From Thermomicrobiales bacterium (lineage in GTDB: Bacteria > Chloroflexota > Chloroflexia > Thermomicrobiales > CFX8): 64,000 bases of DNA. Shown here piece by piece: positions 3,218 through 41,751 of this stretch; within the stretch, counting starts at the first letter, position 1; each line of letters opens with the position of its first letter. The notes beneath the pieces were generated by a model. That model was not told the origin of the DNA and ran no database searches. It was given only the letters and a program-made list of their open reading frames with translations. The DNA is taken from assembly GCA_023954495.1 (NCBI GenBank), contig JAMLIA010000006.1, positions 4,097-68,096 of the forward strand, written 5' to 3'. A program made the translations under genes and the position numbers.

Positions 3218-4498
3218 TCAGCGCTTCAGAATCTCCTTCGTCTGCGTCTCGGCAGTCTGAATCGCGTCATCCAGCGACTTGGTGCCGAAGAAGGCGACGT
3301 AGATCTCCTCGTTGATGATCGACTCGATCTCCGGCCACTCCGCGATGGCGGGCAGGCTCACCAGGCTCGGGCCGAGATCGAGGAAGATCTGGCTGTTGGC
3401 CGGCGATTTGCCCGGATCGAGGAAGGCGTCCGATTCAGCAACGGAAATGAGTGACGGTACGGTTCGACCGACTTGAGCGGCAACGGTCTGCCCGCCCGGA
3501 CCGATGGCGTATTCAACAAACTTCCAGGCTGCGTCCTTATGCTTGGCATCCTTAGGAATGCAGAACGCATCGCTGTGCAAGGTCGATGCCTGGGTCACGT
3601 CAGCCGGCGGCGGCGCGACATCCCACTCGAAGCCGTCGATCGAGCGGAATACCGGTGTCGAGCGGCGGCTGTTCAGCACCATCGCGATGCTGCCATCCAT
3701 GAAGCGGCTGTCCGGATCCTGCGCGGTGTATGACGCTTCGTCAGGAACGACGCCATGCTCCAGGTTCAAGTCGATGAAGAATTGCAGCGCCTCGCGGGTT
3801 GTCTCGGTGTCGAAGGTGATGCTGGTCGGGTCGTTCGGATCGGCCAACAGGCCACCGCCGTGCGACCAGATGAACGGCGCGGCACGAATGATCGACGGCT
3901 CGAAGCCGAGTCCCCAGACGTCGGTCTTGCCATCGCCATCGGTGTCGCGCGTCAGCGCCTTGGCGGTCTCGACAAAGTCATCCCACGTCCAGTCGTTCGC
4001 CGGCAGCGGGACTCCAGCCTCCTCGAACATCGTCTTGTTGTAGTAGACGACCAGGCTGGACTGGTTGAACGGAATGCACTGCAGCGTATCGTCCCAGGTG
4101 AACGCGTCCATCGGGACGTCGAAGTACTGGTCGGCGCTCAGGTCGTCCGAATCCTCCAGCATCGGGCCCAGTGGCTCAAGGACGCCCTTCTCGACAAACT
4201 GGCCGTTGTGCCGATAGTTGACCAGGAAGACATCCGGCGGACTGCCGCTGGCGAACGAGGCCGACAGGCGCGAGAGGAACGTCTTGCGATCCGGGATCGC
4301 ATTGAGCGTCACTTCGGCGTCCGGGTTCTCCTCAACGTAGGCGTCAATGATTGATTGATATGCCTCGGATTCCTCCGGATCTGCCCAGACCTGCCAGGTG
4401 ATGGGTTCGTTGTCGGCACCACTATCACCTCCACAGGCAGCGATCAGAATAGATAGGCCGAGTAGCATCGACAGGACAATGCTGCTCCGTCGTCTCAT
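3218..4498 (-). CDS. Carbohydrate ABC transporter substrate-binding lipoprotein (family 1 SBP)
   Basis: 426-aa ORF. The N-terminus has a lipobox (LSILIAACGG). The overall composition is SBP_bac_1-like, and the gene lies directly downstream of two MalF/MalG-type permease genes. Confidence 0.9.
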   Translation of the reverse strand: MRRRSSIVLSMLLGLSILIAACGGDSGADNEPITWQVWADPEESEAYQSIIDAYVEENPDAEVTLNAIPDRKTFLSRLSASFASGSPPDVFLVNYRHNGQFVEKGVLEPLGPMLEDSDDLSADQYFDVPMDAFTWDDTLQCIPFNQSSLVVYYNKTMFEEAGVPLPANDWTWDDFVETAKALTRDTDGDGKTDVWGLGFEPSIIRAAPFIWSHGGGLLADPNDPTSITFDTETTREALQFFIDLNLEHGVVPDEASYTAQDPDSRFMDGSIAMVLNSRRSTPVFRSIDGFEWDVAPPPADVTQASTLHSDAFCIPKDAKHKDAAWKFVEYAIGPGGQTVAAQVGRTVPSLISVAESDAFLDPGKSPANSQIFLDLGPSLVSLPAIAEWPEIESIINEEIYVAFFGTKSLDDAIQTAETQTKEILKR

Positions 4499-6433: not shown

Positions 6434-7663
6434 TCACGCATCACCTGCCGGAGCGCTCACCAGATCAGGTTGCGAAACTCTCTGTCTGGGGATGTCAATC
6501 TTCTGTGTGTAGTAGATCGACAGCAGGACGAACGCCGTGCCGAACAGGAACGGGAATTGATACCCCAGTTGCGTCCAGAGCGCCGCGCCAAAGATCGGTA
6601 CGGCCACGGCGGCGACGTGAGCCCATGACACACCCATCGCCAGGCTCGGAGCGATGTCTTCTTTGCGCGCGATCTTGCGCAGGTAGGTTGTGGTCCCGAT
6701 CGAGAATGTGTACAGGAAGTTGTAGCCGAGGTAGAAGAGATAGAGCATCCAGACATTCTGTGACAATGCGAAGCCCAGAAACACGACGAAGTGGCCGCAG
6801 TAGTTGATGGTGAGCATGCGCCGTTCGCCGTAGCGGTCAATGAGCCCGCCGATCCAGCCAGCGGTCCGCCAATTAATCAGCCCGGCGATGATCAGCAGCG
6901 AGGTGATGGCCAACGCGCTGACCCCGAACTGCTCGACCAACACGAACGGGGCGAAGGCGAAGTAGATCTCCTGCCGACAGCCATCCAGGAACGACAGCAG
7001 GTAGTACAACCAGTACTCACGCTTCAGCATCAGCTTGCGCGAGGTGTCGCGTTGCTCGTCAGCATCGACAGGGAAGCGCAGGACCGTCACAGCTCCGATC
7101 ACCGCGCTGACCCCAGCCACCACAAAGACAACGCGGAAGATCGATCCCTGGACGCTTTCAAGGGTCTCGGCCAGACGACCGGCGATCAGCAACGTCATCA
7201 GGACGGCGATCATGCCCAGCATACGACCGGCAAAGCCGACCGAGCTAATACGTCCGAGGACGCTGCCTTCCTGCCCCTGTTTGGCGATGCTCAGCCCGAG
7301 AGCGTATTGCATCTGCATCCACGAGTGGAAGCCGATGCTGCCAACGACGGCGGCGATGATGACAGCCGTAAACGTGTACGTCAGAGCAAACGATGCATAG
7401 CCGATACCCATGATGAGCAGAGCGAGGGCCGTCGCCCGGGCAGCACCGAGGCGCAGCAGGATCGCGGCGACGAAGGCCAGCAGAAAGCCCGGCAGCTCAC
7501 GGAACGCAACGAGATAGCCGTTTTGCGCACCATCCATGCCGATCTCTTCCCGGAAGAAGTTCGGCGACACGGACTGGTTGAATCCCATTGAAAGGCTGAC
7601 AGAGAACGCCGTGATTGCCAGGATGACGAATCCCCGTCGAAACTGTTGGTCAGACATGCCCAC
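6434..7663 (-). CDS. MFS transporter
   Basis: 409-aa ORF with about 12 hydrophobic segments and MFS-like charged loops. It is the last gene of the amidase operon. Confidence 0.8.
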   Translation of the reverse strand: MGMSDQQFRRGFVILAITAFSVSLSMGFNQSVSPNFFREEIGMDGAQNGYLVAFRELPGFLLAFVAAILLRLGAARATALALLIMGIGYASFALTYTFTAVIIAAVVGSIGFHSWMQMQYALGLSIAKQGQEGSVLGRISSVGFAGRMLGMIAVLMTLLIAGRLAETLESVQGSIFRVVFVVAGVSAVIGAVTVLRFPVDADEQRDTSRKLMLKREYWLYYLLSFLDGCRQEIYFAFAPFVLVEQFGVSALAITSLLIIAGLINWRTAGWIGGLIDRYGERRMLTINYCGHFVVFLGFALSQNVWMLYLFYLGYNFLYTFSIGTTTYLRKIARKEDIAPSLAMGVSWAHVAAVAVPIFGAALWTQLGYQFPFLFGTAFVLLSIYYTQKIDIPRQRVSQPDLVSAPAGDA

Positions 7664-7860: not shown

Positions 7861-9258
7861 TCAATGTGCTGGCGTTTCGACTTCCGGCGCTTGCCGCCCA
7901 TTCCACGGGCCATCGCGTTCGATGACGCGGGCTGCACGGAAGACGAGCGACTCCATCCACGGGCGTCCCACAATTTGGGTCGCGACCGGGAGATTGTTCT
8001 CGCCGATCCCGACCGGCACGACCATTGCCGGCCAACCGAGGGCGTTGAACGCGCCAGTGAAGCGGGTGTTGCTCTGCACGACACCAATCGGCGGTGCTTC
8101 GTGCGGCATCCCCGGCAGGATCAGCAGATCCAGATCGGCCACGCGGTCTGCAACCCGCTCGCGCAGGATTGTGCGCGCCTGTTGGGCGCGGACAAACGTC
8201 ATCGGCGAATAGGCATAGGCAACGAGCATGCGATCGCGGGCGAAGTCGCCGAGCTCATCGAGGCGATGCTTGAGGAACTCCTCGTACGCCGCCGCGGCCT
8301 CGATGACGAGGATCGTGCCGTAGAGTGCGGAGAGTGCCGACACTTCCGGGATGGCGATCTCGACCAGCGTTGCGCCTGCATCGGCCAGCGCTGCCGCGCC
8401 CGCCTGCAATCCCTCCAGGACCGCCGGTGTGCCCATCGGGCCCGCGCCATCGTCGGTCAGCACGCCGATCTTCAGGCCACTGACGCCCTGCTCGATGGCG
8501 GCCGGGTAGTCATCGACCGGCACGCGGCGCGTTCGAGGATCACCAGCGTCGTAGCCGGCCATGGCTTGCAGCATGATCGCCGCGTCGCCAACGGACCGAC
8601 ACATCGGCCCCATATGATCGAGTGACCACGAGAGCGTCGCTGCCCCACGACCGCTGGCCCGTCCAAAAGTCGGCTTGATACCGGCGATGCCGCAGAGCGT
8701 CGAGGGCATGCGGATCGAACCGCCGGTGTCGGAGCCGGTCGCGCCGAGCACGAGTCCGGCGGCGACGGCAGCGCCCGAGCCACTGCTCGATCCGCCGCTG
8801 TCGTGGGCATGATTCCACGGATTTGCCACAGGGCCGTAATGGGAGTTGTTCGACGCCGGTGAGAAGGCGAACTCCGGCATATGGGTCTTGCCGACGATGA
8901 CAGCGCCAGCGGCATCAAGCAATCGCACGACTTCGCTGTCCTCAGTCGCCACTTTGTCGGCCAGCACGCGAGAACCTGCCGGCGTCGTCTCGCCCTGCAT
9001 GTCCATCAGGTCCTTCACCGCCAGCGGGATACCGTGGAGCGGCCCGCGGTAGTCGCCGCGACCGATGGCCTCCTCGGCTGCTCGCGCCTGGGCGAGCGCA
9101 CGATCCGGTGTCGTCGTCCGGAAGGCGTTCAGAACCGGGTTCGTGCGCTCAATCTCCGCGAGCGACGCTTCTGCCAATTCGACCGGCGACACCTCGCCGC
9201 GCTGAATGAGCGCCGCGACCTCGGCGATCGACTTCCGAAGGAGTGCACGATCAGCCAC
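7861..9258 (-). CDS. Amidase-signature family amidase (GatA/AtzE-like)
   Basis: 465-aa ORF with the amidase signature GGSSSGSGAAVAAG and the GSDTGGSIRMPS motif. It starts at GTG behind an AAGGAGG RBS. Confidence 0.9.
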   Translation of the reverse strand: MADRALLRKSIAEVAALIQRGEVSPVELAEASLAEIERTNPVLNAFRTTTPDRALAQARAAEEAIGRGDYRGPLHGIPLAVKDLMDMQGETTPAGSRVLADKVATEDSEVVRLLDAAGAVIVGKTHMPEFAFSPASNNSHYGPVANPWNHAHDSGGSSSGSGAAVAAGLVLGATGSDTGGSIRMPSTLCGIAGIKPTFGRASGRGAATLSWSLDHMGPMCRSVGDAAIMLQAMAGYDAGDPRTRRVPVDDYPAAIEQGVSGLKIGVLTDDGAGPMGTPAVLEGLQAGAAALADAGATLVEIAIPEVSALSALYGTILVIEAAAAYEEFLKHRLDELGDFARDRMLVAYAYSPMTFVRAQQARTILRERVADRVADLDLLILPGMPHEAPPIGVVQSNTRFTGAFNALGWPAMVVPVGIGENNLPVATQIVGRPWMESLVFRAARVIERDGPWNGRQAPEVETPAH

Positions 9259-9478
9259 GATTCGCCTCCTTCGCTGGTGCTGCGATCAGCGGGTCGAGAT
9301 AGTCAGGAATCTCAACGCCGGTGACGATGTCGTCGATCATTTGCTCGACGGCCAGCGCGCGGGACAGGAAGCCGCGTTCGGCAGTGCGCTGAATGTCCTC
9401 GTCTGAAATAGCAATTCCGGCCGACTTTGTCGCCGCTTTCCAGCGCTCGATCATGGCCTGTTCTCGCTCGTCAGTCAT
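9251..9478 (-). CDS. Small GatC/AtzG-like protein, putative amidase partner subunit
   Basis: 75-aa ORF whose stop overlaps the amidase GTG start by 8 nt. A GAGGAG RBS lies upstream. The sequence has a GatC-like pattern (..AGIAISDEDIQRTAERGF....VEQMIDDIVTGVEIPDYLDP). Confidence 0.55.
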   Translation of the reverse strand: MTDEREQAMIERWKAATKSAGIAISDEDIQRTAERGFLSRALAVEQMIDDIVTGVEIPDYLDPLIAAPAKEANRG

Positions 9479-9499: not shown

Positions 9500-10345
9500 C
9501 TACTCCGGTAGCGCAATTGGCGTATCGTCTCGATTACCCCACTCGCCGAACGAACGGTCGTAGTTCGCAACGCGGTCGTACCCCATCAACGTCAGGACAA
9601 ACACTCCGTGCGCCGCACGGATACCACTTTGTCAATATGGTGCAACGGCTTTGCCGCGCGTGACGCCGTTACTTTCAAGCAGGGCCGCGATGTCGCCTGC
9701 GGGCCTGAAGCGCGCGTTGTGGTCCCAATCCATGAACTGTTTCCACTCGATGTGGACAGCACCTGGAATGTAGCCCTCCCGCTGGTTGTTGCGTGCGAGC
9801 GGCTTGCCGGACCACTCCAGGTCGCTCCGGACGTCCAGTGTTACGAAATCGCTCGATCCAAGTAGCGGAAGAATCAGGTCGCAGCTTGTGATGCGCTCGG
9901 CGTGCGCAGATGCGACAAAATCACCCGGGCGCAGCGGCTGCCACTCCTGTTCCACTGGATAGCCCTCCGCTACCCAGGCGATGAGCCCGCCATCTAAGAC
10001 CGCTACGTTTTCGTGACCGTAATACCAGAGAACCCACCAGCACCGCGCTGCCAGTACGCCACCCTGCGAGTCGTAGCAGACAACACGGCGACCGTTGCCA
10101 ACGCCCATGCCACCGAGAATCTCGGTCGCCTGATCTGGCGGGAGCACGCCGATATTGGTTTCGGTGTTGCGAAGATACGGATGGATCGGCATTTGTACGG
10201 CGCCGGGGATGTGTGGGCGCCCCATCGAAACTTCTGCCGCGTCACAATCTATGATCAGAATGTTGTCGGAGCCCAGCTGTGCGGCAAGCTCAGCTGGCTC
10301 AACGAGGAGATCACCACGCGGATATGTCCGCGACGAATCGATCAC
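9500..10345 (-). CDS. Two-domain rhodanese / thiosulfate sulfurtransferase with an in-frame TGA (9632..9634) at the catalytic Cys position; either a selenocysteine candidate or a nonsense pseudogene
   Basis: The gene starts at GTG 10345 behind a GAGGTGG RBS. Read through the TGA, the translation gives ..VAPY[TGA]QSGIRAAHGVFVLTLMGYDRVANYDRSFGEWGN..., where C-Q-S-G-I-R would be the rhodanese active-site loop. The frame stays open to TAG 9500..9502. Confidence 0.8.
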
Positions 10346-10377
10346 GCTGCCACCTCTTTCTTCTGCCGTGTCAACGT

Positions 10378-11211
10378 CTAGCGAACTCGTGTTGCAATGG
10401 TAATGACGTGGGGAAGCGCGACCAGAAATCGGTGCTGCTGAATGGCGCGGTCCACGGCCCGCTCCCAGCGCTTGACCGTGCTGCGATCCACCTGCCGACC
10501 TGCAATGGCGTGCTCGGCCCACACCGTCGTGATCCCCTGAACGTGTTCAGCATGCGGATTGTCGAACACCAGGAGATAGCCACGCACCTGCTCAACATAC
10601 AGCCCGACCTGCACGCAGGCCGATGGCGCTTCGCGCGCAGCCAGCGGAGAGGCATACATCGACGCCGCCGACGCCAGCACGCGGGCGGTGATTGTGGGAT
10701 CCGGGCCGGCTGCAAACGACGAGTATGGATCGTAGTCAGCCATGACCACACGTCCGCCGATGGTGAGTACCCGACAAATCTCTGACAGGACGCGGTTGAT
10801 TGGCGCGACATGCATGAGCAGTCGCTCGGCGAGCACCGCGTCGAACGTCTCGTCCGGGTACGGTAGCGTGTGGCAGTCGGCTGTCACGTAGCGGGCGTTG
10901 TCGAGGTCCAGCATTCTGGCACGGCGCGATGCAATATCGATGAAGTGCGGGTTCAGGTCGAGTCCGTGGATTTCGCCGTTGGCACCGATCCGGTCGGCGA
11001 TCCCCTCCAGCATCATCCCCGGCCCGCAGCCGAGCTCCAGCGCGACCGCGCCAGGGTACAGATGCGCGTCATCGAGAAGGGAATCGCGCAGGGACGCGAA
11101 GCGCTGGTCATCGAGTGACTCCAGGAGACCGGCCGCGATTGGGTTTGTTTGAGCAGCACTGCCCAGCGCCAACTGCTCATAGAGATCGTTTTGCCAGTGC
11201 TCCTGCGCCAA
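10378..11211 (-). CDS. Class I SAM-dependent methyltransferase
   Basis: 277-aa ORF with SAM-binding motif I (ALELGCGPGMM) and the post-I acidic residue (IHGLDLN). Confidence 0.85.
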   Translation of the reverse strand: MAQEHWQNDLYEQLALGSAAQTNPIAAGLLESLDDQRFASLRDSLLDDAHLYPGAVALELGCGPGMMLEGIADRIGANGEIHGLDLNPHFIDIASRRARMLDLDNARYVTADCHTLPYPDETFDAVLAERLLMHVAPINRVLSEICRVLTIGGRVVMADYDPYSSFAAGPDPTITARVLASAASMYASPLAAREAPSACVQVGLYVEQVRGYLLVFDNPHAEHVQGITTVWAEHAIAGRQVDRSTVKRWERAVDRAIQQHRFLVALPHVITIATRVR

Positions 11212-11301: not shown

Positions 11302-11649
11302 CTATGCCGCCATCGCGACGGTCATTGCGGCCAGCGACAGGACTGCAACGAGGCTGAGCGTGGCGATTGTCCCAACTCGCTTGCCAAGGCGCTTGCGGAA
11401 AACCGGAGTCAGTCCGAGCGACAAAATAGCGAGTAGACCAAGGATCGGGTGAATGATCGTAATGCGGTCGGCGTCCTCAGAAATGAGGATGATTCCCAGA
11501 ATGACCTGGATGCCAAGCAGTCCGTGAGCGAGCCCGGTGAGCGCTGGTGGCACTGGCCGATCGCGTCGCCCAATGAACAGCATCGCGATGATGACGAAGA
11601 TGTAAATGATAAACAGGCTCTCGCCAAGATACCGGTGAATACTCTCCAT
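11302..11649 (-). CDS. Small hypothetical membrane protein (3-4 predicted TM helices)
   Basis: 115-aa hydrophobic ORF lying divergent to polX. No recognisable catalytic motif. Confidence 0.55.
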   Translation of the reverse strand: MESIHRYLGESLFIIYIFVIIAMLFIGRRDRPVPPALTGLAHGLLGIQVILGIILISEDADRITIIHPILGLLAILSLGLTPVFRKRLGKRVGTIATLSLVAVLSLAAMTVAMAA

Positions 11650-23070: not shown

Positions 23071-26000
23071 TCAGAGCGCGCGTGACCACCGGAGCAGCAA
23101 CGCTGCGTCGTTGGCTGGCATCATTCCGAGCATGGCCGAGAAGGAGACCGCGACCTGGAAGCGGACCATCATCGTGAATGCCACCTGCTCCTGGCCGCGC
23201 CGCGCCGCATTCTCGGCGGCCGCGAGCATGCTGCACAGGGAGTTGGCTTCGCGCGCGCTCGTGAGGATCTCCCTCGACAGCCCGCACAGGTCGGCGTGTG
23301 TTGCCACAACGCGGAAGGTGGCTTGTGTGCTGGATGAGTTACCGGCCTGATCGAGTGCGGTCGCGGTGATGCTCTGGTCTCCAGCCGAGAGCGAGCTCGC
23401 CTTGCGGTTCAGGTCTGCGCACGTATCAGACGCTACACCGGAGGTTGCATCGCTGACCGAGCAGGATATGACGATCGTGTCGAGCAGCCCATACGTCCCC
23501 TGGTTGCCGGTAAAGACGACCTCCGGCGCGGTCGCATCACGCTTGACGCTGACCGACTTGGTTGAGCTACCACCGGCGCTCACCGCCGTGCAGGTCAACG
23601 TTCTTTCCGCCGTGTCCTCAGTAACAACTGTCTGGTCGCAGCCGGTCATCGACGTGATGCCCGACTCGTCGTCGGTCACCGTCCAGGTGATCGTGACATC
23701 GCTGGTGTACCAGCCGTCGTTGCCGAGCGTGCCATCGAGCGTCGCCTCGACTGACGGTGCAGTGGCGTCGTTGACGGTGTACGTAAAGTCCGCCGTCGCG
23801 CTGTTGCCCGCGATATCGGTCGCCGTACAGGTGATCATGTGCTCGCCGAGCGACGCTGTGTCAACCGATGGGCAATTCTGCGACGCGACACCGGACAGCG
23901 TGTCCGTTGCATTCGATGTTGCAGTCGCCTCGCTGTTGAACAGGATGACTGTTGGGTCAATGGTCGGGCTGAGCGTCGGAGCCGTTGCATCACGCTTGAC
24001 GGTCACGGATTCAGTCGTGCTGCCACCGTCACTGGCTGCCGTACAGGTGAAGGTCGTCTCGGCAGTATCAGTGTTGATGACCGTCTGATCGCACCCAGTC
24101 ATGACGGTGATGCCTGAGTCGTCGTCAGTGACTGTCCAGGTGATGGTGACATCGCTCGTGTACCAGTCGTCATTGCCGAGCGTACCAGTGACATTCGCGA
24201 CAACCACTGGCGGCGATGGATCGTGGACCAGGTAGGTGATGTCTGCTGTCGCGGAGTTGCCGGCGGCATCTGTCGCGGTGCAGGTGATGGAGTGCTCGCC
24301 GACTGACGATGTATCCACGATCGGGCAATGTTGCGATGCAACGCCCGACAGCGCGTCGTCTGCATTTGGCGTCGCTGACGCCTCACTATTGAGCATGATG
24401 TCCGTCGGCTCGATGGTCGGACTGAGAGCCGGTGCCGTTGCATCACGCTTGAAGGTCACGGACCCGGTCGTGCTGCCGCCGGCGCTCACGGCTGTGCAGG
24501 TGATTGTCGTCCCGGCAGTGTCTTCAGCAACGACTACCCGATCACAGCCAGTCATCGACGTAATCCCGGAGTCCTCATCTGCGACCGTCCATGTGACCGT
24601 GACATCACTGGTATACCAGCCATCGTTGCCGATCGTGCCAGCGACCGTTGCTTCGACCGTCGGCGCTGTGTTGTCGATGACGGTGTAGGTGATTGACGCG
24701 CTCGCGGAGTTGCCAGCGACGTCGGTTGCTGTGCAAGTGATGGTGTGCTCACCGACCGATGACGTGTCAATCGTCGGGCAGCTCTGCGAAGCAATACCGG
24801 ACGCAGCATCGCTGGCGTTTGGTGTCGCGGTCGCCTCGCTGTTGAGGAGAATGACGTCAGGCGCAATCGTTGGATTGAGCGATGGTGCCGTTGCATCTCG
24901 TTTGATCGTGAGCACCTGTGTGGTGACGCCACCACTGCTCGTGACCTGGCAGGTGGAGGAGACGCCATCGGGTCCGACCGAGTCGGTAGTCACGTCAAAG
25001 ACATCGCAGCCCACGACGGACGTGATCGGAGATTCGTTGTCTGAATACCACCACTCGAACGTGACGTTGCTGGTGTACCAGCCGTTGCGGCCTTGCGTGC
25101 CGAAGACCACTGGATGGACGATCGGTGGCGTGCTGTCGACCACGACCAATGTGCCATCGACCCAACTGATCTCGTAGTTTTGGGAGGTCAGACCCTGGCA
25201 GGTGATGGTGTAAACACCGCGTGGTGGGACGGGACTGAGCGCAACTGCGTTTCCGGCCTTGTCCTGCAGCACGCAGCTCAGAGTGCCGTTCAGATTGTTG
25301 ACATCCTCACCGCTGGCGAAGCCATCGTAGGTGACAGCTGCGATGTCCGGCAGGGATGCGGCGTTGTCAGGCACATCGTAAGACGGTGCGGTGATCGTCA
25401 GGTGTTGCGCTAGTACCTCAAGTTGAACTGAGACTGGATCCGGAACCCAGGTGTTGCCAACGTTCGGTGTGAACTGCACAGTCAGTGTGTGCGTTCCAAC
25501 CGGAAGGATCTGGCTTGCGTCGTACGCATCACCGTCAACAGTGACTGCGAATGTGCCACTAACAGGTTGGCCGGCAGCGTCTGTTGCTGTGTAGCTTAGT
25601 GGCACGTCCCCTAGAGCCGTGCCATAGGTGATCGGATCTGGGGCGGGCCAGGAGACAGTGACACCATTCAGGATGACGTATGTCGCCACTAATGACGTCG
25701 CGCCAGCAGCGTCAGATACCGTCACGTTAACTTGGTAGTGGCCGATGGCCGCATATCTGTGCTGGGACCAGATCTTGTAGGTCCCGACACTACCGGCGAC
25801 GGGGATGAGGTCGATGTCATCGACGCCAAGCTCGATCATCATCGGGGATTCCGCCACGGAGAGAGCCGGCGAGCCGTCGCCCCAATCAACCGTAAGACGA
25901 ACTTCATCTTCGGCAAATGGCGCGACCGTCAAACCAGTCACTTCCATCGCTTGTTGCGGCACACCAGATCGAACGTCACAGACCACTTCCGGGGTGCAGG

Positions 26001-28128
26001 TCGTAGCACCAACAAAGACAGACAGATCCAGCGTCGGTTTTTCGACGGATTCGATCATGACGTTGAATTCGGATGACGTCACGAGGCCAAGGGAGTCCGT
26101 GGCGGTGAGACGCACTCCCCAGATACCTGGCTTCGCGAACGACTGCTGAATCGAAGCGCCATTAATCGGATCGCCGAACGGGTTGCAGGCCACGATGCCG
26201 CCGCAGCCAACGATCACGGTCGATGGCTCCTTGAACTGCCAGCTATAGGTGACATCCAGCCCGAGCGGTGAAACACCATGCGCATTGAACGTCATTGGCG
26301 AGTTCAATATCCGCGCACCGCTATATGTTGGCGCAACATGCGGCCCGCCACCGGAGTCGACAACTGATGCCGAATATTGCTCTCCATCGTCACCAACGTA
26401 GTTGATCGACTCAGAGATGGAGCAGGTGCCGTCGTCGATACACGTGCTCGGGTTGATCTCAGGGTCGGACTCTTCGCGCTGCTTTGCTTGAACGAACTGG
26501 TAGGTGCCTTCATCATCCTGCACCAGCCAGGCGAAGCGATTCACATCGTCCCAATCGGTGTAGAAGAGCCGCAATGACGGGCTAGCGGACGGCGGGAAGT
26601 CAATGGCGCGGAGCTCGTTGATGAACCAGTGCCCATGGATTCGCGTGGTTTCGGCGGCCTCCGCTGATGGCAACTGATGTGAAATCGTCTGCGAGTAGAA
26701 GGACTCGCCCGTTTCAGCCTTCGTGACCGAGAAGAGCGGATCTGTTTGGCTGTAAGCGGGAATCTCCGTTGCATTCAGGCACGGCGCAACCGTTGGGCCG
26801 TACTCGGCGTTGTCGCACGTATCAAATCGTGGAGCTGGCAGTGCAGCAACCAGGAACATCGCGAACAGCCCGCCGACCTTGTCCGGATCGTTCACGATCG
26901 ATGCCAGGTCAGGCGTTGTCGACTGCGCAGTCTGAATGTTGTCAGCGAGCCTGACTGGCAGTTCTCCTTCGACGGAGAAGTTGATGATGGCGATGACGGT
27001 GATGATGATGGTCGCAATAATGAATGCGACTGCCAGCCCAGCTGCTACGGCAGTTGACGCGCCACCTGCGATTGCCAGATCGGCCTTGACCGCTTCTGAT
27101 GCGGCTTTCGCCGTCATACCGGAGGCCATGTAGGCCGAGTAGGCCGCTTGAGCCGAAGCCAGGGTGAAGTCTCCGACGTAGCCAGCGAATGGCGCAACGG
27201 CTTCCCAGATCGCTGTCGAACTCGCGAATGCCGAGGCAACGGTGGAGGAAGTTGCTATCCCGTAGCCGATGGCGGCAGCTGCGACACTGCCAGCACTGAA
27301 TGCGATGGCATTCGCCGTACCTCGTGAAATGCGAGCCAGATCTGGCGAGTCGAGGATCTGGTTTTCCCGAGCAAAGCCCCATTTGACGAACTGATCGTAC
27401 TCAGGCGGCATTTGCTGGCAGCCAGTTGGAGACGTGCAGGGCGTGTAGCAGGTCTGCGTCTGGTAGCCGATGTACTCTTCTTCGTATGGCGACGGCGATC
27501 GATAGTCACAGTATCCAATTGGATTCTCGTACACATCGCTCGCAAGAAAATTGACGAGTGCGCCGTGGTCAGCGCCGGTTGCGATCAGGTTGTTGTAGGC
27601 CTCCAGATTGAGCCCTTTCCAGCTCACATATTCGCGGCCAGCACCGATTGCTGCCTCCACATCCTGACGATGCTGAGCTGTCGTGAGCCAATCCACCACG
27701 TTCTGCTGATCTGTGGTGCGGCTCTCAGCCGGCGTCTTGATCGCTACGACAACGAGGCCCCACAGCTCGGCCAGCGCGTCTTCGCGCGCCCAGCTGAGGA
27801 CGGCGTCGCCGTCGTCTGGGTCGAGGCCGTGGACTGCGATGACGGACGCGATTGCCGCGTTCTCCATCGCCCGGATTGACTCGGCCTGTTCAGGAGTGGC
27901 CTCATATTTCCCGAACGTCAGCGTCCCCTCGTTGATCAGTGGGGGTGGTGCGTAAACCGCTGCCGATGCCGGCTCGGCAAAGCGGTACACATACGACATC
28001 ATCATGGCGACGATGAGCAGATAGACGAGTGACCGCGACCAGAGCGGTCTCGTCCTGGATGACCTGCGCCGCCCATTGCGTCGCGTTAACCCTGATGAGC
28101 GCTCCCTCACCTTACGCGCCGTTCTCAT
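23071..28128 (-). CDS. Giant (1685 aa) cell-surface protein: N-terminal signal/anchor, an unknown Cys-rich domain, an internal hydrophobic hairpin, PKD-like and MBG-like domains, four ~151-aa Ig-like tandem repeats, and a helical C-terminal tail
   Basis: Single uninterrupted ORF. The N-terminus has an R-rich stretch followed by LVYLLIVAMMMSYVY..ASAA. PKD-like motifs are present (TVDWGDGSP...HRYAAIGHYQVNVTVSD). The repeats have the consensus D.TAP.V...V.GT.GNDGWYTSDVT.TWTV.D..SGITSMTGCD...KRDATAP.LSPTI. Confidence 0.9.
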   Translation of the reverse strand: MRTARKVRERSSGLTRRNGRRRSSRTRPLWSRSLVYLLIVAMMMSYVYRFAEPASAAVYAPPPLINEGTLTFGKYEATPEQAESIRAMENAAIASVIAVHGLDPDDGDAVLSWAREDALAELWGLVVVAIKTPAESRTTDQQNVVDWLTTAQHRQDVEAAIGAGREYVSWKGLNLEAYNNLIATGADHGALVNFLASDVYENPIGYCDYRSPSPYEEEYIGYQTQTCYTPCTSPTGCQQMPPEYDQFVKWGFARENQILDSPDLARISRGTANAIAFSAGSVAAAAIGYGIATSSTVASAFASSTAIWEAVAPFAGYVGDFTLASAQAAYSAYMASGMTAKAASEAVKADLAIAGGASTAVAAGLAVAFIIATIIITVIAIINFSVEGELPVRLADNIQTAQSTTPDLASIVNDPDKVGGLFAMFLVAALPAPRFDTCDNAEYGPTVAPCLNATEIPAYSQTDPLFSVTKAETGESFYSQTISHQLPSAEAAETTRIHGHWFINELRAIDFPPSASPSLRLFYTDWDDVNRFAWLVQDDEGTYQFVQAKQREESDPEINPSTCIDDGTCSISESINYVGDDGEQYSASVVDSGGGPHVAPTYSGARILNSPMTFNAHGVSPLGLDVTYSWQFKEPSTVIVGCGGIVACNPFGDPINGASIQQSFAKPGIWGVRLTATDSLGLVTSSEFNVMIESVEKPTLDLSVFVGATTCTPEVVCDVRSGVPQQAMEVTGLTVAPFAEDEVRLTVDWGDGSPALSVAESPMMIELGVDDIDLIPVAGSVGTYKIWSQHRYAAIGHYQVNVTVSDAAGATSLVATYVILNGVTVSWPAPDPITYGTALGDVPLSYTATDAAGQPVSGTFAVTVDGDAYDASQILPVGTHTLTVQFTPNVGNTWVPDPVSVQLEVLAQHLTITAPSYDVPDNAASLPDIAAVTYDGFASGEDVNNLNGTLSCVLQDKAGNAVALSPVPPRGVYTITCQGLTSQNYEISWVDGTLVVVDSTPPIVHPVVFGTQGRNGWYTSNVTFEWWYSDNESPITSVVGCDVFDVTTDSVGPDGVSSTCQVTSSGGVTTQVLTIKRDATAPSLNPTIAPDVILLNSEATATPNASDAASGIASQSCPTIDTSSVGEHTITCTATDVAGNSASASITYTVIDNTAPTVEATVAGTIGNDGWYTSDVTVTWTVADEDSGITSMTGCDRVVVAEDTAGTTITCTAVSAGGSTTGSVTFKRDATAPALSPTIEPTDIMLNSEASATPNADDALSGVASQHCPIVDTSSVGEHSITCTATDAAGNSATADITYLVHDPSPPVVVANVTGTLGNDDWYTSDVTITWTVTDDDSGITVMTGCDQTVINTDTAETTFTCTAASDGGSTTESVTVKRDATAPTLSPTIDPTVILFNSEATATSNATDTLSGVASQNCPSVDTASLGEHMITCTATDIAGNSATADFTYTVNDATAPSVEATLDGTLGNDGWYTSDVTITWTVTDDESGITSMTGCDQTVVTEDTAERTLTCTAVSAGGSSTKSVSVKRDATAPEVVFTGNQGTYGLLDTIVISCSVSDATSGVASDTCADLNRKASSLSAGDQSITATALDQAGNSSSTQATFRVVATHADLCGLSREILTSAREANSLCSMLAAAENAARRGQEQVAFTMMVRFQVAVSFSAMLGMMPANDAALLLRWSRAL
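23305..25140 (-). repeat. Four in-frame tandem repeats with a ~453-nt period (150-154 aa each) inside the giant surface-protein gene
   Basis: The landmark string gtgacatc(g/a)ct(g/c)gt(g/a)taccag recurs at 23693, 24146 and 24599, with a diverged copy at 25061. This gives periods of 453, 453 and 462 nt. The antisense shadow ORFs 23366..24088, 24236..24688 and 24689..25177 mirror the repeat. Confidence 0.85.
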
Positions 28129-28568: not shown

Positions 28569-31500
28569 TCAGGAGTTGAAGAAGTTGTGGCGGTGCGCCA
28601 GCGCGATGGCCTCAGCCCGGCTGGACACGTCGATCTTTGTGTAGATGTTGGCGGAGTGTCGTTCAACTGTGCGCACACTCATCGAGAGCTCGTGCGCAAT
28701 GTCCTTGTTGCTGCGACCGGCAGCGATCAGTCGCAAGACATCGAGTTCGCGAGGGCTCAGTCCATATTGCGGCGCGGAGTCCGTGTGCAGCGGCAACTGC
28801 GTCTCCGCTGCGTCCACTCGCGCCAACACGGTCTCCGCGCGAATTGGCTCACAGATCCTGCGGACTTCCTGAAGCGCGATTCGGGCTAGCTCAAATTGCC
28901 CAGTCGCTAAGTACAGATCGGCGTAGACCTGCATTGAAACCGCCCGCTCGTACGGCAATGCGCAGGCGGTTGACAGTGAAAGCGACTGATCGAGATGATG
29001 GGCGGCAGCGGCAGCATTTCCTGTGATGATCTCCAGCCGTCCGACTGCGCGGTGGGCCATCGAGAGCAGTAGCGGTTGACGTGGCTCGCTGGCCAGATCG
29101 AGCGCAGTTCGCGCGTGATGCATGGCGGACTCGTTGTCGCCGGTCAGGGAGCAGAATCGCGTCCACAACAAGTGCCCTTCTGCCCGCCCGATCACTGCGC
29201 CGCTCCACTCAACCCAGCGGCCGTGCGCCACGATCCATTCATGAGCTGTCGGCAGGTCTCCCGCATCCATCGCCAGCCCGGCCGCCAATTCCTGAATCAT
29301 GAGCACATCAATGAACCCCTGGTTGCCGGGTTCGGTGGCCGCGCCGGTGGGGAGCAATTCGTGAATGAACTCCCACGCCTCTGCGACCTTGCCCTGATCT
29401 CGCTTCAGCTGAGCCAGCACCGTGCCCAACTTGATATGCCACCATGACACATTTGTTTCTTCGGAGCCGTACGCCTCTTCTGCCGCCTGAATGTCCGACC
29501 AGCGACATTCGAGAAGCGCGAGGTATGAAATTGACGCGACGAGCGGCAGGTTAACCTCTGTCGAAAACGTGCCGACAACCTGTTGGTACATGGCGGCGAT
29601 GTGCTGCGCGAGGAAGCCACGCTCTCTTACCTGCTCGGTGCGATATGGCAAGAGCACGAGCTCAAGCTCTTGCGAGTAGACATCGCCGATCAGCATCCGA
29701 TGGTCAATGGCCTGATACATCGCTCGTGCGGACGCGAACGCTCGGTCTGCGTCGTCCGGTCGACCGACGAGTGCGTACGCGATGCCAAGGCCGTTGTACA
29801 GATCCGCCCAACCGCTGCCGGTGTTGCCACCAAGGTCAGGCGTCAGGCGCGCTCGCTCTGGATCGGGAGGCCAGATCGTCGCTAATGCTTCGCCGATGGT
29901 GAGCGCTTCCTCGATATATCCCAACCAGGCCAGATTGGTGACGACAGTCCCCCATGTGAGGCATATTGGATGATCAGGCTGGTCTGACAACAATCGCGCT
30001 GCCCGACAGTGCAACGCGACTGACTCCTGCGCCTCGGCAATACCTAGCGGTGGAACACCGCACGCATCGAACGCCCCTGCGCGGAGCGCAGCGTCTGTTT
30101 CTCGGCAGGCTGCCTCAGCTTCACGGATGCCCCGTCGCATGTCTCCAAGGAGGAATTGCAGGTAGCCGGAATAGAACGACGCCAGGGCCCTCAATAGCGG
30201 ATCGTCCAGACGCATGGCTGCCGGGAGTACGTCCTGAATCGCCGCGAGGCCGCGCTGAGGATCATCGAAGCGGCGCATGATGCCAGACCAGAACTGGAGC
30301 CAGCTGTATTCGCGCGTGCGATCAACCTCGTGGCGGAGCCAATTCGCGGCAGCGTCGAAATGATCGGCTGCCTCAACCCAGGCGTGTGACCAATGCGCGC
30401 GTCGCCCCGCCTCGATGAGCCATTCGACTGCACGCGGATCGTTGGCCTCCTGATAGTGTTGTGCCACCAGATCGGGCAACGCAGGACGCGATGACGCATA
30501 CGCCTCGGCAATCTTCTGATGCCACAACCGTCGTCGCGGACCGTGCAGGGACTCTACGAGCGCATCGCGAATCAACGCATGATGGAATCGGAGTTGGTCT
30601 GTCGTTTCGCCTTCGTCAAGGATGCGAGCTTCGAGTGCCTCGTCGCAGATATCGAGCAGCGTGGCATCGTCGAATCCGCAAATCGCTGCCCACAGGTCGA
30701 GCGAAACGTTCTCCCCGAGCATGGCTGCGACCTGCAACGCTGAGCGCGCTTCAGGCGTCAGCCGTTGCAAACGGACATCGATCACTTCGCGCAGGCGGTT
30801 GGGAATGCGGAGATGCGCGACATCTGTCAGCACCCAGCGCTCCATGTTACGGGTCAGCGTGCCGCTTTCCTCAAACGAGCGCAGCAACTCGTTGGCAAAG
30901 AGCGCGTTGCCCTGGGTTAGATCAACAAGCATGTCGGCCAACTTCTCGACATCCGGATCTGCAAGGCAATAGCGCGCCTTTACCAGGTCGGCGAGACCAG
31001 ACCGATCAATGGGCTGGAGGGTGAGTCGTTCTGCGTGCGTATCGCGCACGAGATGCGGTAACTGCTGCGCGAGGGGATAGCGCGAGGTGAGCGCATCGTC
31101 GCGATACGAACCAACAATGAGCAGTGGGATTGTCACGGACCGCCGACCGACGAAACGCAGCAGGTCGATGCTCGATTGATCGGACCAATGCAGGTCTTCC
31201 AGTATGAGGCAGATGGGTCGCTGTTTGCTCGCTGCTTCGACAAACACACAGAAGGATTCGAACAGTGCCAGTTGGCTTGGTGCGGCGGCGGCTTGTCCAT
31301 CCGCCCACAACTGGCCAGGCGGAGCGGGAGGTGGATCGCCAACCGGTGGATGCCTCGCTATATGCATTTCCCAGGCGCGAGCAATGCCAATCCAGGGAGA
31401 ATATGGTCGGGATATTTCCTGATCGGAACAGTTGCCGATCAATACGGTGACGTCCTGTGCGGATGCAATGTGGGTCAAATCCTCAAGCAGGGCCGTTTTG

Positions 31501-31655
31501 CCGACACCAGCTTCACCACGGAGCAACACGAGTCCGCCGGTACCAGCGATCGCTTGCGACAAGTGCGCCTTCAGGAGCGTCCGCTCATTGTCTCGGCCAA
31601 CAAGAATTGTGGAGAGCCTCTGATGGGCTTCATATGCATCGCCGCGGTCGTCCAT
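28569..31655 (-). CDS. LAL-type regulator: N-terminal AAA/STAND ATPase, a TPR-like helical middle region, and a C-terminal LuxR HTH
   Basis: 1028-aa ORF with Walker A (GEAGVGKTAL) and Walker B-like (CLILEDLHWSD) motifs. The C-terminal LuxR/GerE HTH reads LSPRELDVLRLIAAGRSNKDIAHELSMSVRTVERHSANIYTKI. Confidence 0.9.
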   Translation of the reverse strand: MDDRGDAYEAHQRLSTILVGRDNERTLLKAHLSQAIAGTGGLVLLRGEAGVGKTALLEDLTHIASAQDVTVLIGNCSDQEISRPYSPWIGIARAWEMHIARHPPVGDPPPAPPGQLWADGQAAAAPSQLALFESFCVFVEAASKQRPICLILEDLHWSDQSSIDLLRFVGRRSVTIPLLIVGSYRDDALTSRYPLAQQLPHLVRDTHAERLTLQPIDRSGLADLVKARYCLADPDVEKLADMLVDLTQGNALFANELLRSFEESGTLTRNMERWVLTDVAHLRIPNRLREVIDVRLQRLTPEARSALQVAAMLGENVSLDLWAAICGFDDATLLDICDEALEARILDEGETTDQLRFHHALIRDALVESLHGPRRRLWHQKIAEAYASSRPALPDLVAQHYQEANDPRAVEWLIEAGRRAHWSHAWVEAADHFDAAANWLRHEVDRTREYSWLQFWSGIMRRFDDPQRGLAAIQDVLPAAMRLDDPLLRALASFYSGYLQFLLGDMRRGIREAEAACRETDAALRAGAFDACGVPPLGIAEAQESVALHCRAARLLSDQPDHPICLTWGTVVTNLAWLGYIEEALTIGEALATIWPPDPERARLTPDLGGNTGSGWADLYNGLGIAYALVGRPDDADRAFASARAMYQAIDHRMLIGDVYSQELELVLLPYRTEQVRERGFLAQHIAAMYQQVVGTFSTEVNLPLVASISYLALLECRWSDIQAAEEAYGSEETNVSWWHIKLGTVLAQLKRDQGKVAEAWEFIHELLPTGAATEPGNQGFIDVLMIQELAAGLAMDAGDLPTAHEWIVAHGRWVEWSGAVIGRAEGHLLWTRFCSLTGDNESAMHHARTALDLASEPRQPLLLSMAHRAVGRLEIITGNAAAAAHHLDQSLSLSTACALPYERAVSMQVYADLYLATGQFELARIALQEVRRICEPIRAETVLARVDAAETQLPLHTDSAPQYGLSPRELDVLRLIAAGRSNKDIAHELSMSVRTVERHSANIYTKIDVSSRAEAIALAHRHNFFNS

Positions 31656-37476: not shown

Positions 37477-37976
37477 TTACTCCCGCTTTCTCGTCGAACA
37501 ATTCGACCTATTAATTCTACTAATTTGCACCTGTGACGGCCAGTCACTTTCCGCGTCCACATGCGGAAAACAGGACTTTTCCAAAGACGAACGCAGCGAT
37601 TCAGCCTCGCTCTCTCGCCTGACTACATCTCTGCGTCCGCCTATGGAGTTGGCCTGTCACAGCCGAGAATCGTGCCGCTCGACTGACAGATCAGCGCCGT
37701 TTACTCGTCACTCATTCGTCGCAACCAGATGGTCAGTTATGTGCAGTCGTGACGAAGTCAACGCTGTAAAACACATTGACTTCGTTCGCTGCGGGTCATT
37801 TCCTGCCCGTTGCTATACTGAAGAATGACAGGAGCCCGGTATCCGGTCGGAAGAGACTGCTACAAACATGACCGGACCGCGGAACATCTGAATTGCTCGC
37901 GCGACGATTGCGCGGACGATGCTGCTGAGCGATGTGTGCTCAGTGCCGACGACTGGATGGGAGTGGCGGGATCGGT

Positions 37977-39377
37977 ATGGCGCAGGAGCAGAACTCGTAC
38001 GATGTCCTCTTTCTCGGTGGCGGAACCGGTGGGTACGTCGCAGCAATTCGGGCCGCACAGCTGGGAATGCGCGTAGGGGTCATTGAAAAGGACCTCGTCG
38101 GTGGCACATGCGTCCATCGCGGTTGCATCCCGGCGAAGGCGCTGCTGAAGGGCGCATCGGTAGCCAGCACCGTGAAGGAAGCCGCGAAGTACGGTGTGAC
38201 GCCTGGTGAAATCAGCCTGGACTACGCCGTCACGATGGGCAATGCCCGCAAGGTTGTGGATCAGAACTACAAAGGCATCCAGTTCCTCTTCCGCAAGCAC
38301 AAGATCGATACGATCGAGGGCTGGGGCGTCCTGACCTCACCGAACACGATCAAGGTTCAGACCAAGGACGGGTCGTCAACGGAAGTCACCGCCAAGAACA
38401 TCATTATCGACACCGGCTCAACTCCTCGACCAATCAAGGGGCTCGACTGGGACCCGAAGCGTGTCTTCAATAGCGACCACGCGACGACTGAGCCGTACCT
38501 GCCGAAGCGCGTCATTGTTCGTGGCGGCGGGGCGACCGGCCTTGAGTTCGCCAGCACCTACCGCGACTTCGATTGTGAAGTGACCCTTGTTGGTCGAGTC
38601 GCGCCGAACGAGGACGAAGAGGTCCAGAAGGAGCTCACCCGAGCGTTCCAGCGGCGCGGCATTCGCGTTATCCCGAACGTCCGCCCGACGGCCGAAGACT
38701 TCGAGATCAGCGATGATGGCGTGAAGATGCGCTTCACCGCAGACGGCAAGGATGAAGTCATCGAGGCTGACGCGCTGCTGGTTGCGACCGGGCGCTTCGG
38801 CAACTACGAGGGCATCGGCCTGGAAGAGGTCGGCGTCAAGGTTGTCGATGGCTACATTGCGGTTGATGAGTACATGCGCACGAACGTTCCGGGCGTCTTC
38901 GCCATTGGCGATGTCACCGGGAAGCAGCAGCTCGCGCACACCGCCATGCATCAGGGCGTTGTTGCTGTCGAGCTGATCGCCGGCGAGAAGCCGCACGCGC
39001 TCGACTACGGCAAGATCCCCTGGGTGACCTACTGCTCGCCGGAGATCGGATCTGTCGGTCTCACTGAGCAGAAGGCTCGTGACGCAGGCTACAACGTACA
39101 GACCGGCAAGTTCCCGCTCTCGGCCAACGGCAAGGCCCGCATCGAAGGTGACACCGTCGGTTTCGCCAAGCTGGTGGTCGACGCTGACACCGACCAGATC
39201 CTTGGGGTTCACCTGCTGGGCGGTCACGCGACGGAGTCGATCTCCGAGGCCGGGCTGGCGATGATGTTCGAGGCAACTGCCTGGGAGCTGACGATTACCG
39301 TCCATCCGCACCCGACGATTTCCGAAGTCATTCACGAGGCGGCGCTCGACGTCTTCGGGCGGCCCCTGCACATCTAG
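37977..39377 (+). CDS. lpd: Dihydrolipoyl dehydrogenase (E3)
   Basis: FAD motif FLGGGTGGYVAAIRAAQLG, redox-active disulfide GGTCVHRGCIPAK, and the C-terminal HPHPTISE motif. Confidence 0.92.
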   Translation: MAQEQNSYDVLFLGGGTGGYVAAIRAAQLGMRVGVIEKDLVGGTCVHRGCIPAKALLKGASVASTVKEAAKYGVTPGEISLDYAVTMGNARKVVDQNYKGIQFLFRKHKIDTIEGWGVLTSPNTIKVQTKDGSSTEVTAKNIIIDTGSTPRPIKGLDWDPKRVFNSDHATTEPYLPKRVIVRGGGATGLEFASTYRDFDCEVTLVGRVAPNEDEEVQKELTRAFQRRGIRVIPNVRPTAEDFEISDDGVKMRFTADGKDEVIEADALLVATGRFGNYEGIGLEEVGVKVVDGYIAVDEYMRTNVPGVFAIGDVTGKQQLAHTAMHQGVVAVELIAGEKPHALDYGKIPWVTYCSPEIGSVGLTEQKARDAGYNVQTGKFPLSANGKARIEGDTVGFAKLVVDADTDQILGVHLLGGHATESISEAGLAMMFEATAWELTITVHPHPTISEVIHEAALDVFGRPLHI

Positions 39378-39600
39378 TCGAACGGAAGCAGAACTTCGGA
39401 CGGTCGCCCAGCGGCCGTCCGAAACTACAGGTAGTAAGGAGAAGCCGAGCTCAGAGCAACGTTGTCTACGCAAGTGAATAGCCAATTCGTCGCGGTCGTG
39501 GTTCGCGTTATGCGGAAGCAAAGACACGAATCGACAGCGGCGTGCTCACAGGTGAAGATCCAGTCCAACGGCGGGCTGGAACGGCAAAGGAGGCAGCACT

Positions 39601-40635: not shown

Positions 40636-40739
40636 CGGCTCGCGCGAGCAGCCGATGTCATCGACGCTGTTGTCGACGACGCATCGCCCGCTCGCAGTGC
40701 TCACCAGCGTGCGCAGATGCACGTAGCGCAGGAGGATAC

Positions 40740-41726: not shown

Positions 41727-41751
41727 CCACCCGAACGTGAGGAGGACAACG

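Follow-up and report, generated by a model that had tools for sequence, protein, structure and literature searches.

Does an in-frame UGA codon within a bacterial rhodanese gene mark a broken gene, or does it encode selenocysteine (Sec)? This question is raised by a gene on the minus strand of a 64,000-nucleotide (nt) stretch of DNA from a Thermomicrobiales bacterium (contig JAMLIA010000006.1; the whole stretch is referred to here as the window). An initial annotation, made from the sequence alone, noted that a UGA sits at the catalytic position of a predicted rhodanese and is followed by a hairpin similar to a bacterial Sec insertion sequence (SECIS), and proposed either a selenocysteine sulfurtransferase or a very recent pseudogene. 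The analyses presented here support the former: the TGA is conserved among relatives, the tail behind it is under selection, the hairpin is frozen together with the TGA, and a selenoprotein family to which the gene can be assigned has been published. Conservation of the UGA, of the downstream frame and of the hairpin fits recoding. Overall, these comparisons make it very likely (a probability of roughly 0.93) that the UGA at codon 238 is a genuine Sec codon and that the gene encodes a rhodanese with a Sec nucleophile.

The UGA codon and the frame beyond it

The reading frame remains open for 43 codons between the TGA at 9634-9632 and the TAG at 9502-9500, and the full-length protein is obtained only by reading through the UGA. 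The read-through product of 281 amino acids (aa) matches the rhodanese family PF00581 of Pfam in two stretches (2.9e-28), and its best solved match by phmmer is Azotobacter vinelandii RhdA (1e0c; E 7.9e-41, residues 13-279). In that alignment the UGA column corresponds to Cys230 of RhdA, the catalytic residue within CQTHHRS, for which the window counterpart is UQSGIRA (U denoting the UGA codon). The protein therefore has the two homology domains of a tandem-domain rhodanese, with the nucleophile first in the six-residue C-X4-R loop of the C-terminal domain. In the N-terminal domain an invariant Asp occupies the spot equivalent to the catalytic Cys (YDSQGG), and this domain is predicted to be inactive, as in other tandem rhodaneses. 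The best NCBIfam match is an SseA-type 3-mercaptopyruvate sulfurtransferase model, under its cut-off. The initial annotation had placed the TGA in frame at codon 238 of a 281-codon two-domain protein that is open to the TAG, with the UGA on the catalytic Cys of the rhodanese loop and a GTG start at 10345 behind a GAGGTGG motif; sequence and translation, the RhdA alignment and the N-termini of orthologues confirm each of these. A longer open reading frame (ORF) listed from GTG 10522 was rejected as an artefact, since it overlaps the upstream methyltransferase gene and orthologues begin at the 10345 position.

A protein search returned 3,910 homologues. Among the best 120 of these 3,910, approximately half are annotated at 236-243 aa, share 50-88% identity with the query and cover 82-84% of it; full-length forms with Cys (PYCQSGVRAAHG...) appear from approximately 54% identity downward. 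The short homologues that were inspected stop at ...(A/V)PY, just ahead of the catalytic position. At the DNA level, 31 loci were compared, with one genome per species (GTDB representatives). TGA occupies the codon in 16 further species-representative genomes, one of them labelled SAR202 and the others Thermomicrobiales or Chloroflexia (17 loci in total, as L005 and L017 come from one metagenome-assembled genome, MAG), and Cys-type relatives have TGC there. In each of the 17 loci, the TGA is followed by a conserved Q-x-G-I-R-A-A-H-G...ANYD...EWGNR, and TGA is kept at this column in orthologues down to approximately 38% protein identity. Thus, the UGA aligns to Cys in homologues, as in the Sec/Cys pairs by which bacterial selenoproteins are recognized, and protein-level conservation extends beyond the UGA, which is a second mark of such genes.

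To extend the comparison to metagenomes, which provide a larger and independent sample, a fully degenerate pattern for Y-(TGN)-Q-x-G-I-R-A-A-H-G was used, which is blind to the choice between stop and Cys and to the codons of the hairpin. At least 120 loci matched, with 116 TGA and 4 TGC among those listed. The frame is open for 40-45 codons after the UGA in nearly all loci, and more than 130 sequences keep frame, length and amino acids. Across 16 Sec-type genes, the mean ratio of nonsynonymous to synonymous differences (pN/pS) is 0.37 downstream of the UGA versus 0.46 upstream. When only the window and its closest relative (L001) are compared, pS is 0.31 and pN is 0 past the UGA. Hence, the downstream codons are translated and maintained by selection, which bears out the earlier remark that they show no decay. 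Additionally, TGA is the ordinary stop codon of 14 of the 33 other window genes, and hence UGA is not reassigned genome-wide.

Some of the loci are unusual in other respects. L005 and L017, on two contigs of MAG JTS-RE48, are near-identical copies of the Sec-type gene, through duplication, strain heterogeneity or a binning artefact. In the Thermomicrobiales MAG ABC1.20 (L028, approximately 10715-10750), TGA and hairpin are present, but the G-run that follows CAG (TGACAGGGGCGGC) is longer by one G and causes a frameshift; the locus may have been misassembled at this homopolymer or may be a true pseudogene.

The hairpin downstream of the UGA

The hairpin described in the initial annotation (9621-9605) folds as stated, and the comparative data make it more than a chance structure. 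An RNAalifold consensus has six invariant pairs (CCGUGC/GCACGG) closing a GGC loop, 11 nt from the UGA; a seventh pair, U-A (9621/9605), is found in the window and is absent from some orthologues. The sequence ATC CGT GCG GCG CAC GG is identical in every TGA-bearing orthologue among the species-representative loci. Across the 16 Sec-type genes there are 46 amino-acid columns that are invariant and yet encoded by a degenerate codon family, and only five of them use a single codon throughout. These five follow one another as hairpin codons +4 to +8, which form the stem and loop, and the other 41 all vary. Given the peptide IRAAH and the codon usage of the window (CGT being 16% of Arg codons), the chance of this codon set is approximately 0.011 per sequence. 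The two closest Cys-type loci, L008 (ATC CGC GCG GCA CAC) and L011 (ATC CGC GCG GCC CAC), encode the same IRAAHG peptide with codons that break two of the six stem pairs.

Among the metagenome matches listed, the hairpin codons are identical in 113 of the 116 TGA loci, and the three variants (CAT twice, ATT once) each replace C with U opposite G, so that wobble pairing is retained. Three of the four TGC loci have other hairpin codons. Flanking synonymous sites are free in the same set: TAC and TAT are used 61 and 59 times, respectively, ahead of the UGA, and at +2, +3 and +9 each of the four GGN codons is seen. In 1.3 Mb of fetched loci, the 15-mer of the hairpin occurs 132 times, 131 of them exactly 11 nt past a TGA or TGC; the exception is L028. 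These patterns identify the hairpin as a conserved RNA structure that goes with the TGA and would act as a bacterial SECIS. The GA of the UGA and the bases after it might also pair with UUUGUC in a lower helix; 84% of the cells of this helix are pairable in 15 orthologues, with no compensatory changes and with coding constraint as a confounding factor.

The minimal SECIS of Escherichia coli fdhF is reportedly a 17-nt upper stem-loop located 11 nt past the UGA. The window hairpin is similar in that it lies in the coding region just 3' of the UGA and has a short, G-containing apical loop and an 11-nt spacer. Unlike the fdhF element, it is shorter, has a GGC triloop and is without the bulged U. 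At 15 nt with a triloop, this predicted SECIS is about as small as any, and its conservation across classes could make it a handy model of SelB recognition outside Proteobacteria and Firmicutes.

Selenoprotein family, Sec machinery and other explanations

The initial annotation also pointed out that surveys of bacterial selenoproteomes include rhodanese-related proteins, and this is correct. 'Rhodanese-related sulfurtransferase' (COG2897, 3 sequences) was among the new selenoprotein families of the Sargasso Sea selenoproteome paper of 2005, in which a predicted SECIS was drawn for one member (PMC1088965). 'Sulfurtransferase COG2897' is listed with 1 sequence for the Global Ocean Sampling (GOS) data, and a 2022 review lists the same family as 'Rhodanase-related sulfurtransferase, COG2897 (SseA)'. 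Membership of the window gene was tested on the Sargasso Sea supplementary sequences, which read ...YTYuQAGVRAAHANFVL, ...ATYuQGGIRAAHVFVVL and ...VTYuQGGIRAAHVMFVL. Their DNA aligns with the window without gaps, and by BLASTP AACY01110644 shares 42% identity with the window protein over the catalytic domain (E 4e-36), with the Sec column aligned. The U-Q-S-G of the window conforms to the UxxG pattern of this COG2897/SseA-type family. Fold, two-domain organization, the Y-U-Q-x-G-[IV]-R-A-A-H motif and the distance to the hairpin are likewise the same.

The Sargasso sequences are also informative with regard to the hairpin. Its position and shape are common to them and the window, with a shared core of CGUGC-GGC-GCA(C/U)G, in which one U forms a G-U wobble, and the outer pair co-varies. 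Specifically, the window clade has C-G at stem pair 15-29, where one Sargasso sequence has G-C and the other two have A-U; pair 17-27 is G-U in one of the Sargasso sequences. With these sequences included, 95% of cells pair in register, versus 14-74% when the 3' arm is slid by 1-3 positions. The element is thus a stem-loop directly past the UGA whose small apical loop contains a G, as bacterial SECIS elements have been described (PMC1088965).

Comparisons with other rhodaneses help to define what the window gene is. As in RhdA and other tandem Cys rhodaneses or thiosulfate and 3-mercaptopyruvate sulfurtransferases (1e0c, 3hwi, 1uar and 1urh), there are two domains, a C-terminal C-X4-R loop and full-length alignment, and by analogy a double displacement through a covalent chalcogen-sulfur intermediate is presumably common to both. 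In contrast to the Cys enzymes, the predicted nucleophile is Sec, and the loop reads U-Q-S/G-G-I-R where those enzymes have CQTHHR, CRKGVT or CGSGVT. The single-domain COG0607 forms 1-3 (including NF041203, CxU) and TsoB are likewise rhodanese-fold proteins that carry Sec at or close to the loop, but they are single-domain proteins or fusions with other Sec motifs and are separate families (PMC13188914, PMC9312934). Consistent with this, the NF041203 'rhodanese-related (seleno)protein' model matches the window protein weakly (33 bits versus a cut-off of 115) and through the N-terminal domain. The window gene is therefore a new, complete, soil-lineage member of the selenoprotein family predicted in 2005, and not a new kind of selenoprotein. 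It differs from the published members, which are few, low-GC marine fragments (3 from the Sargasso Sea and 1 from GOS), in being a complete, high-GC Thermomicrobiales gene within a large clade (16 further species genomes) that has its own operon.

What is added here is the scale of the family (16 further species genomes and at least 116 metagenome loci), its systematic mis-annotation, a quantitative account of SECIS conservation and a conserved operon. The literature has treated the family as rare, on the basis of the three Sargasso sequences and the one from GOS; it appears to be widespread in soil Thermomicrobiales and Chloroflexia and in metagenome lineages that include SAR202, with at least 116 TGA loci. 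Every public copy that was examined is annotated as truncated, at 236-243 aa, under the names 'rhodanese-like domain-containing protein' or 'sulfurtransferase', and in one public record the tail is annotated as a separate 52-aa fragment. The combined signature of hairpin and TGA is specific (131 of 132 in the expected context) and could correct hundreds of records.

Several observations weigh against a Sec codon. None of selA, selB, selD or tRNA-Sec was found in the 64-kb window or in the fetched Chloroflexi loci: ARAGORN detected no tRNA of any kind in the window, and none for Sec in 19 related loci, and tblastn with E. coli SelA, SelB and SelD (NC_000913) gave nothing in the window or the Chloroflexi loci. 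A scan of the window for other TGA-interrupted coding frames returned antisense shadows only, at a low sensitivity, as its filter on third-position GC content (GC3) missed the rhodanese itself. The folding energy of the 81-nt region is unexceptional relative to shuffled sequence (z = -0.12); therefore, the single-sequence case for a SECIS is weak, and the comparative evidence decides. Rfam SECIS models gave no match, only noise, over the whole window at gathering thresholds and over 9540-9680 at E<=10. The stem is near-invariant within the clade, such that covariation amounts to one pair in three distant sequences, plus the wobble-compatible variants. Lastly, a literature search found no experimental selenium incorporation for any member of the family.

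Because sel genes need not adjoin the genes of their clients, their absence from the window says little. The window is collinear with the Thermomicrobiales MAG L001 at approximately 82% nt identity over 20 kb. In the lineage, Sphaerobacter thermophilus, Thermomicrobium roseum and Nitrolancetus hollandicus are all listed as SelD+, SelA+ and SelB+, with 9, 5 and 8 selenoproteins per genome, respectively (Peng et al. 2016, Table S1; PMC5029168). Since the Sec machinery is listed for these cultured members, the source genome presumably encodes it as well. NCBIfam and Pfam searches of 40 further window ORFs revealed ordinary metabolism, transport and cell-surface genes and no selenium-related gene. 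A tblastn search against plasmid records included no Thermomicrobia among the matches listed or in the summary by organism, the best being Cys rhodaneses at 30-35%.

Two side observations concern selenium genes in general. The only sel gene in any fetched locus is a selD of the Bacteroidetes MAG RA.bin16 (L031, 1027-1974; 47% identity to E. coli SelD), approximately 8 kb from a distant Cys-type rhodanese. Within the window, 51434-52621 (+) encodes a class V aminotransferase of the cysteine desulfurase/selenocysteine lyase type (Aminotran_5, 2.6e-51), which could bear on sulfur or selenium mobilization; it is 40 kb from the rhodanese and unlinked to the rhodanese in other loci.

Other explanations for the UGA were weighed against the same data. 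The UGA could be decoded otherwise, either by genome-wide reassignment to Trp or Gly or by hairpin-stimulated, near-cognate read-through that inserts Cys or Trp. It is known in general that read-through may be promoted by a structure that follows the stop, and the inserted amino acid is not identifiable from sequence alone. However, TGA ends many other genes of the window, as described above, the recoded site is the catalytic Cys, and the nearest relatives swap TGA and TGC, which is a Sec/Cys signature. Furthermore, the hairpin is closed by a small apical loop with a G, as described for bacterial SECIS elements, and SelA, SelB and SelD are listed for the lineage (PMC5029168). Such alternative decoding is consequently considered very unlikely.

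Alternatively, the hairpin might be a regulatory or mRNA-stability element, with a non-catalytic, 237-aa rhodanese-fold product as the functional outcome. Catalytically inactive rhodanese domains exist, and the public annotations all call the 237-aa product. Nevertheless, the 40-45 codons past the UGA keep their frame, length and sequence in more than 130 sequences, which is unexpected for untranslated RNA, and the truncated protein would lose part of the domain fold in addition to the loop. A functional truncation is accordingly given only a slight probability.

A third explanation is a nonsense pseudogene, in which a recent TGC/TGT-to-TGA mutation is followed by a tail that has not yet decayed. 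A single sequence cannot distinguish an intact 43-codon tail from a very recent event, and no Sec machinery is visible in the window. In contrast, the same TGA is present in the 16 other species genomes and at least 116 metagenome loci at approximately 38-88% identity, the tail is under purifying selection with synonymous divergence saturated, and the downstream hairpin is conserved only in TGA forms (the TGC-bearing L044 being the exception). A single clonal contaminant is excluded by the divergence of the TGA-bearing sequences. The comparative data thus refute the pseudogene, which is left with a minute probability. Finally, a sequencing or assembly error at 9632-9634, with TGC or TGT as the true codon, can be raised a priori and is practically negligible, given that assemblies made independently in many projects and on many platforms combine TGA with the specific hairpin codons and that Sanger-era Sargasso Sea reads also show the UGA site and hairpin.

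With Sec as the preferred assignment of codon 238, a mechanism can be proposed, in which SelB binding, selenium content, substrate and chemistry are inferred, the insertion steps being those established for bacterial Sec. The UGA would be recoded during translation instead of being read as a stop. The hairpin 11 nt downstream would recruit SelB-GTP-Sec-tRNA(Sec) to the ribosome, and the 11-nt spacer would set the UGA in the A site as the SelB complex binds the hairpin. Sec would then be inserted as residue 238, with 43 codons to follow before the TAG at 9500. If Sec were not inserted, a 237-aa fragment would be released that lacks the active-site loop and the C-terminal part of the domain. In the complete enzyme, a selenolate at the head of the C-X4-R cradle would take up sulfane sulfur or selenium, and by analogy with Cys rhodaneses a covalent Se-S (or Se-Se) intermediate would pass the chalcogen to an acceptor. 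A literature search found no biochemical study of a selenol in the rhodanese cradle.

Exchange between Sec and Cys appears to have occurred within the clade. A neighbour-joining tree places L008 and L011, both Cys forms, within the Sec clade as sister to L009 and L010, and this nesting fits a Sec-to-Cys replacement that was followed by loss of the hairpin. L008/L011 versus L009/L010 form a natural Sec/Cys pair within one clade, which offers a clean comparison. A metagenome contig (Ga0101943_1000111, L044) carries TAC-TGC at 4462-4467 together with an intact hairpin (ATC CGT GCG GCG CAC) and is possibly a more recent Sec-to-Cys conversion. The hairpin is also identical in the SAR202 sequence L021, which is 38% identical; therefore, the element is either old or was transferred together with the gene.

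Genomic context

The gene lies in a cluster of co-oriented, tightly spaced genes (Table 1), the arrangement of which is conserved in Thermomicrobiales-related genomes. In 16 of 19 loci, the gene just ahead of the rhodanese encodes the methyltransferase. Directly downstream, a protein of approximately 75 aa whose gene overlaps the next one is found in at least 8 loci, and the amidase is downstream of the rhodanese in 15. The transporter of the major facilitator superfamily (MFS) is at the same place in 5 loci. In 8 loci there is also the 115-aa membrane protein, whose gene is upstream in the window and behind that of the amidase in other genomes. L008 and L011, the nested Cys forms, share their neighbours with the Sec clade.

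Table 1. Features of the Sec-rhodanese locus and its gene cluster, in window coordinates
Feature	Position	Strand	Basis or remarks
Sec-containing two-domain rhodanese, coding sequence	9500..10345	-	281 codons plus TAG; translation, Pfam, RhdA alignment, orthologue N-termini
GAGGTGG, Shine-Dalgarno-like	10350..10356	-	4 nt 5' of GTG 10345; read from sequence
UGA codon 238, read as Sec; head of the C-X4-R loop (U-Q-S-G-I-R)	9632..9634	-	RhdA Cys230 alignment, orthologue TGA
TAG, true stop of the predicted selenoprotein	9500..9502	-	Sequence; orthologues end 40-45 codons past the UGA
Predicted SECIS hairpin, UCCGUGC-GGC-GCACGGA, 17 nt	9605..9621	-	Fold, consensus, codon conservation, covariation
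Hairpin core: 6-bp stem CCGUGC/GCACGG, GGC triloop, 11 nt past the UGA	9620-9606	-	RNAalifold consensus
Possible lower helix with the GA of the UGA: GACAAA 9633-9628 / UUUGUC 9601-9596	9596..9633	-	Window fold; uncertain
Class I S-adenosylmethionine-dependent methyltransferase, directly upstream	10378..11211	-	Methyltransf_31/11/25; weak ArsM/UbiE-group similarity
Small 75-aa protein	9251..9478	-	Overlaps amidase start by 8 nt; no match in family or PDB searches
AtzE-related amidase-signature enzyme	7861..9258	-	NF006631 (AtzE family) 1.9e-98, below cut-off; Pfam Amidase; best PDB match AtzE 6c62, 1.5e-71
MFS transporter, distal end of cluster	6434..7663	-	MFS_1
115-aa membrane protein	11302..11649	-	Weak COX15-CtaA-like match below cut-off

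The operon context was found in only two (L054 and L081) of the 120 metagenome matches listed. Its presence in the more distant Cys homologues P0078 and P0069 was considered and rejected, as their neighbours are peptidases. Since contexts differ in the metagenome loci and in the distant Cys homologues, the operon is clade-specific. Many other metagenome loci (L036 and approximately 15 more) have two thioredoxin-like CxxC proteins 0.3-2.5 kb past the UGA and hemA/hemL upstream; this is a second conserved context, distinct from the Thermomicrobiales operon.

The overlap between the 75-aa ORF and the amidase resembles the AtzG/AtzE (GatC/GatA-like) pair of a small and a large subunit, and from its position the 75-aa protein may be an AtzG/GatC-like partner of the amidase. 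The cluster as a whole suggests that methyltransferase, Sec-rhodanese, small protein, AtzE-like amidase and transporter may act in a shared pathway. The linkage also brings to mind a more specific and rather doubtful proposal, namely that the Sec-rhodanese is a dedicated part of a five-gene module in which chalcogen transfer is coupled to methylation and amide hydrolysis. If so, the module would represent a new route for the catabolism or detoxification of a compound related to sulfur, selenium or cyanide, and the enzyme would not be a generic housekeeping sulfurtransferase.

Three further regions of the window stand out. A 1685-aa protein (23071-28128, minus strand) carries HYR, PKD and bacterial Ig-like domains and is probably located at the cell surface. 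Adjoining its gene is that of a 1028-aa regulator (28569-31655, minus strand), which combines an AAA ATPase, TPR repeats and a LuxR-type (GerE) DNA-binding domain. On the plus strand, 37932-43116 contains a complete 2-oxoacid dehydrogenase operon that encodes an E3-like pyridine nucleotide-disulphide oxidoreductase, E1 alpha, E1 beta and a lipoyl E2.

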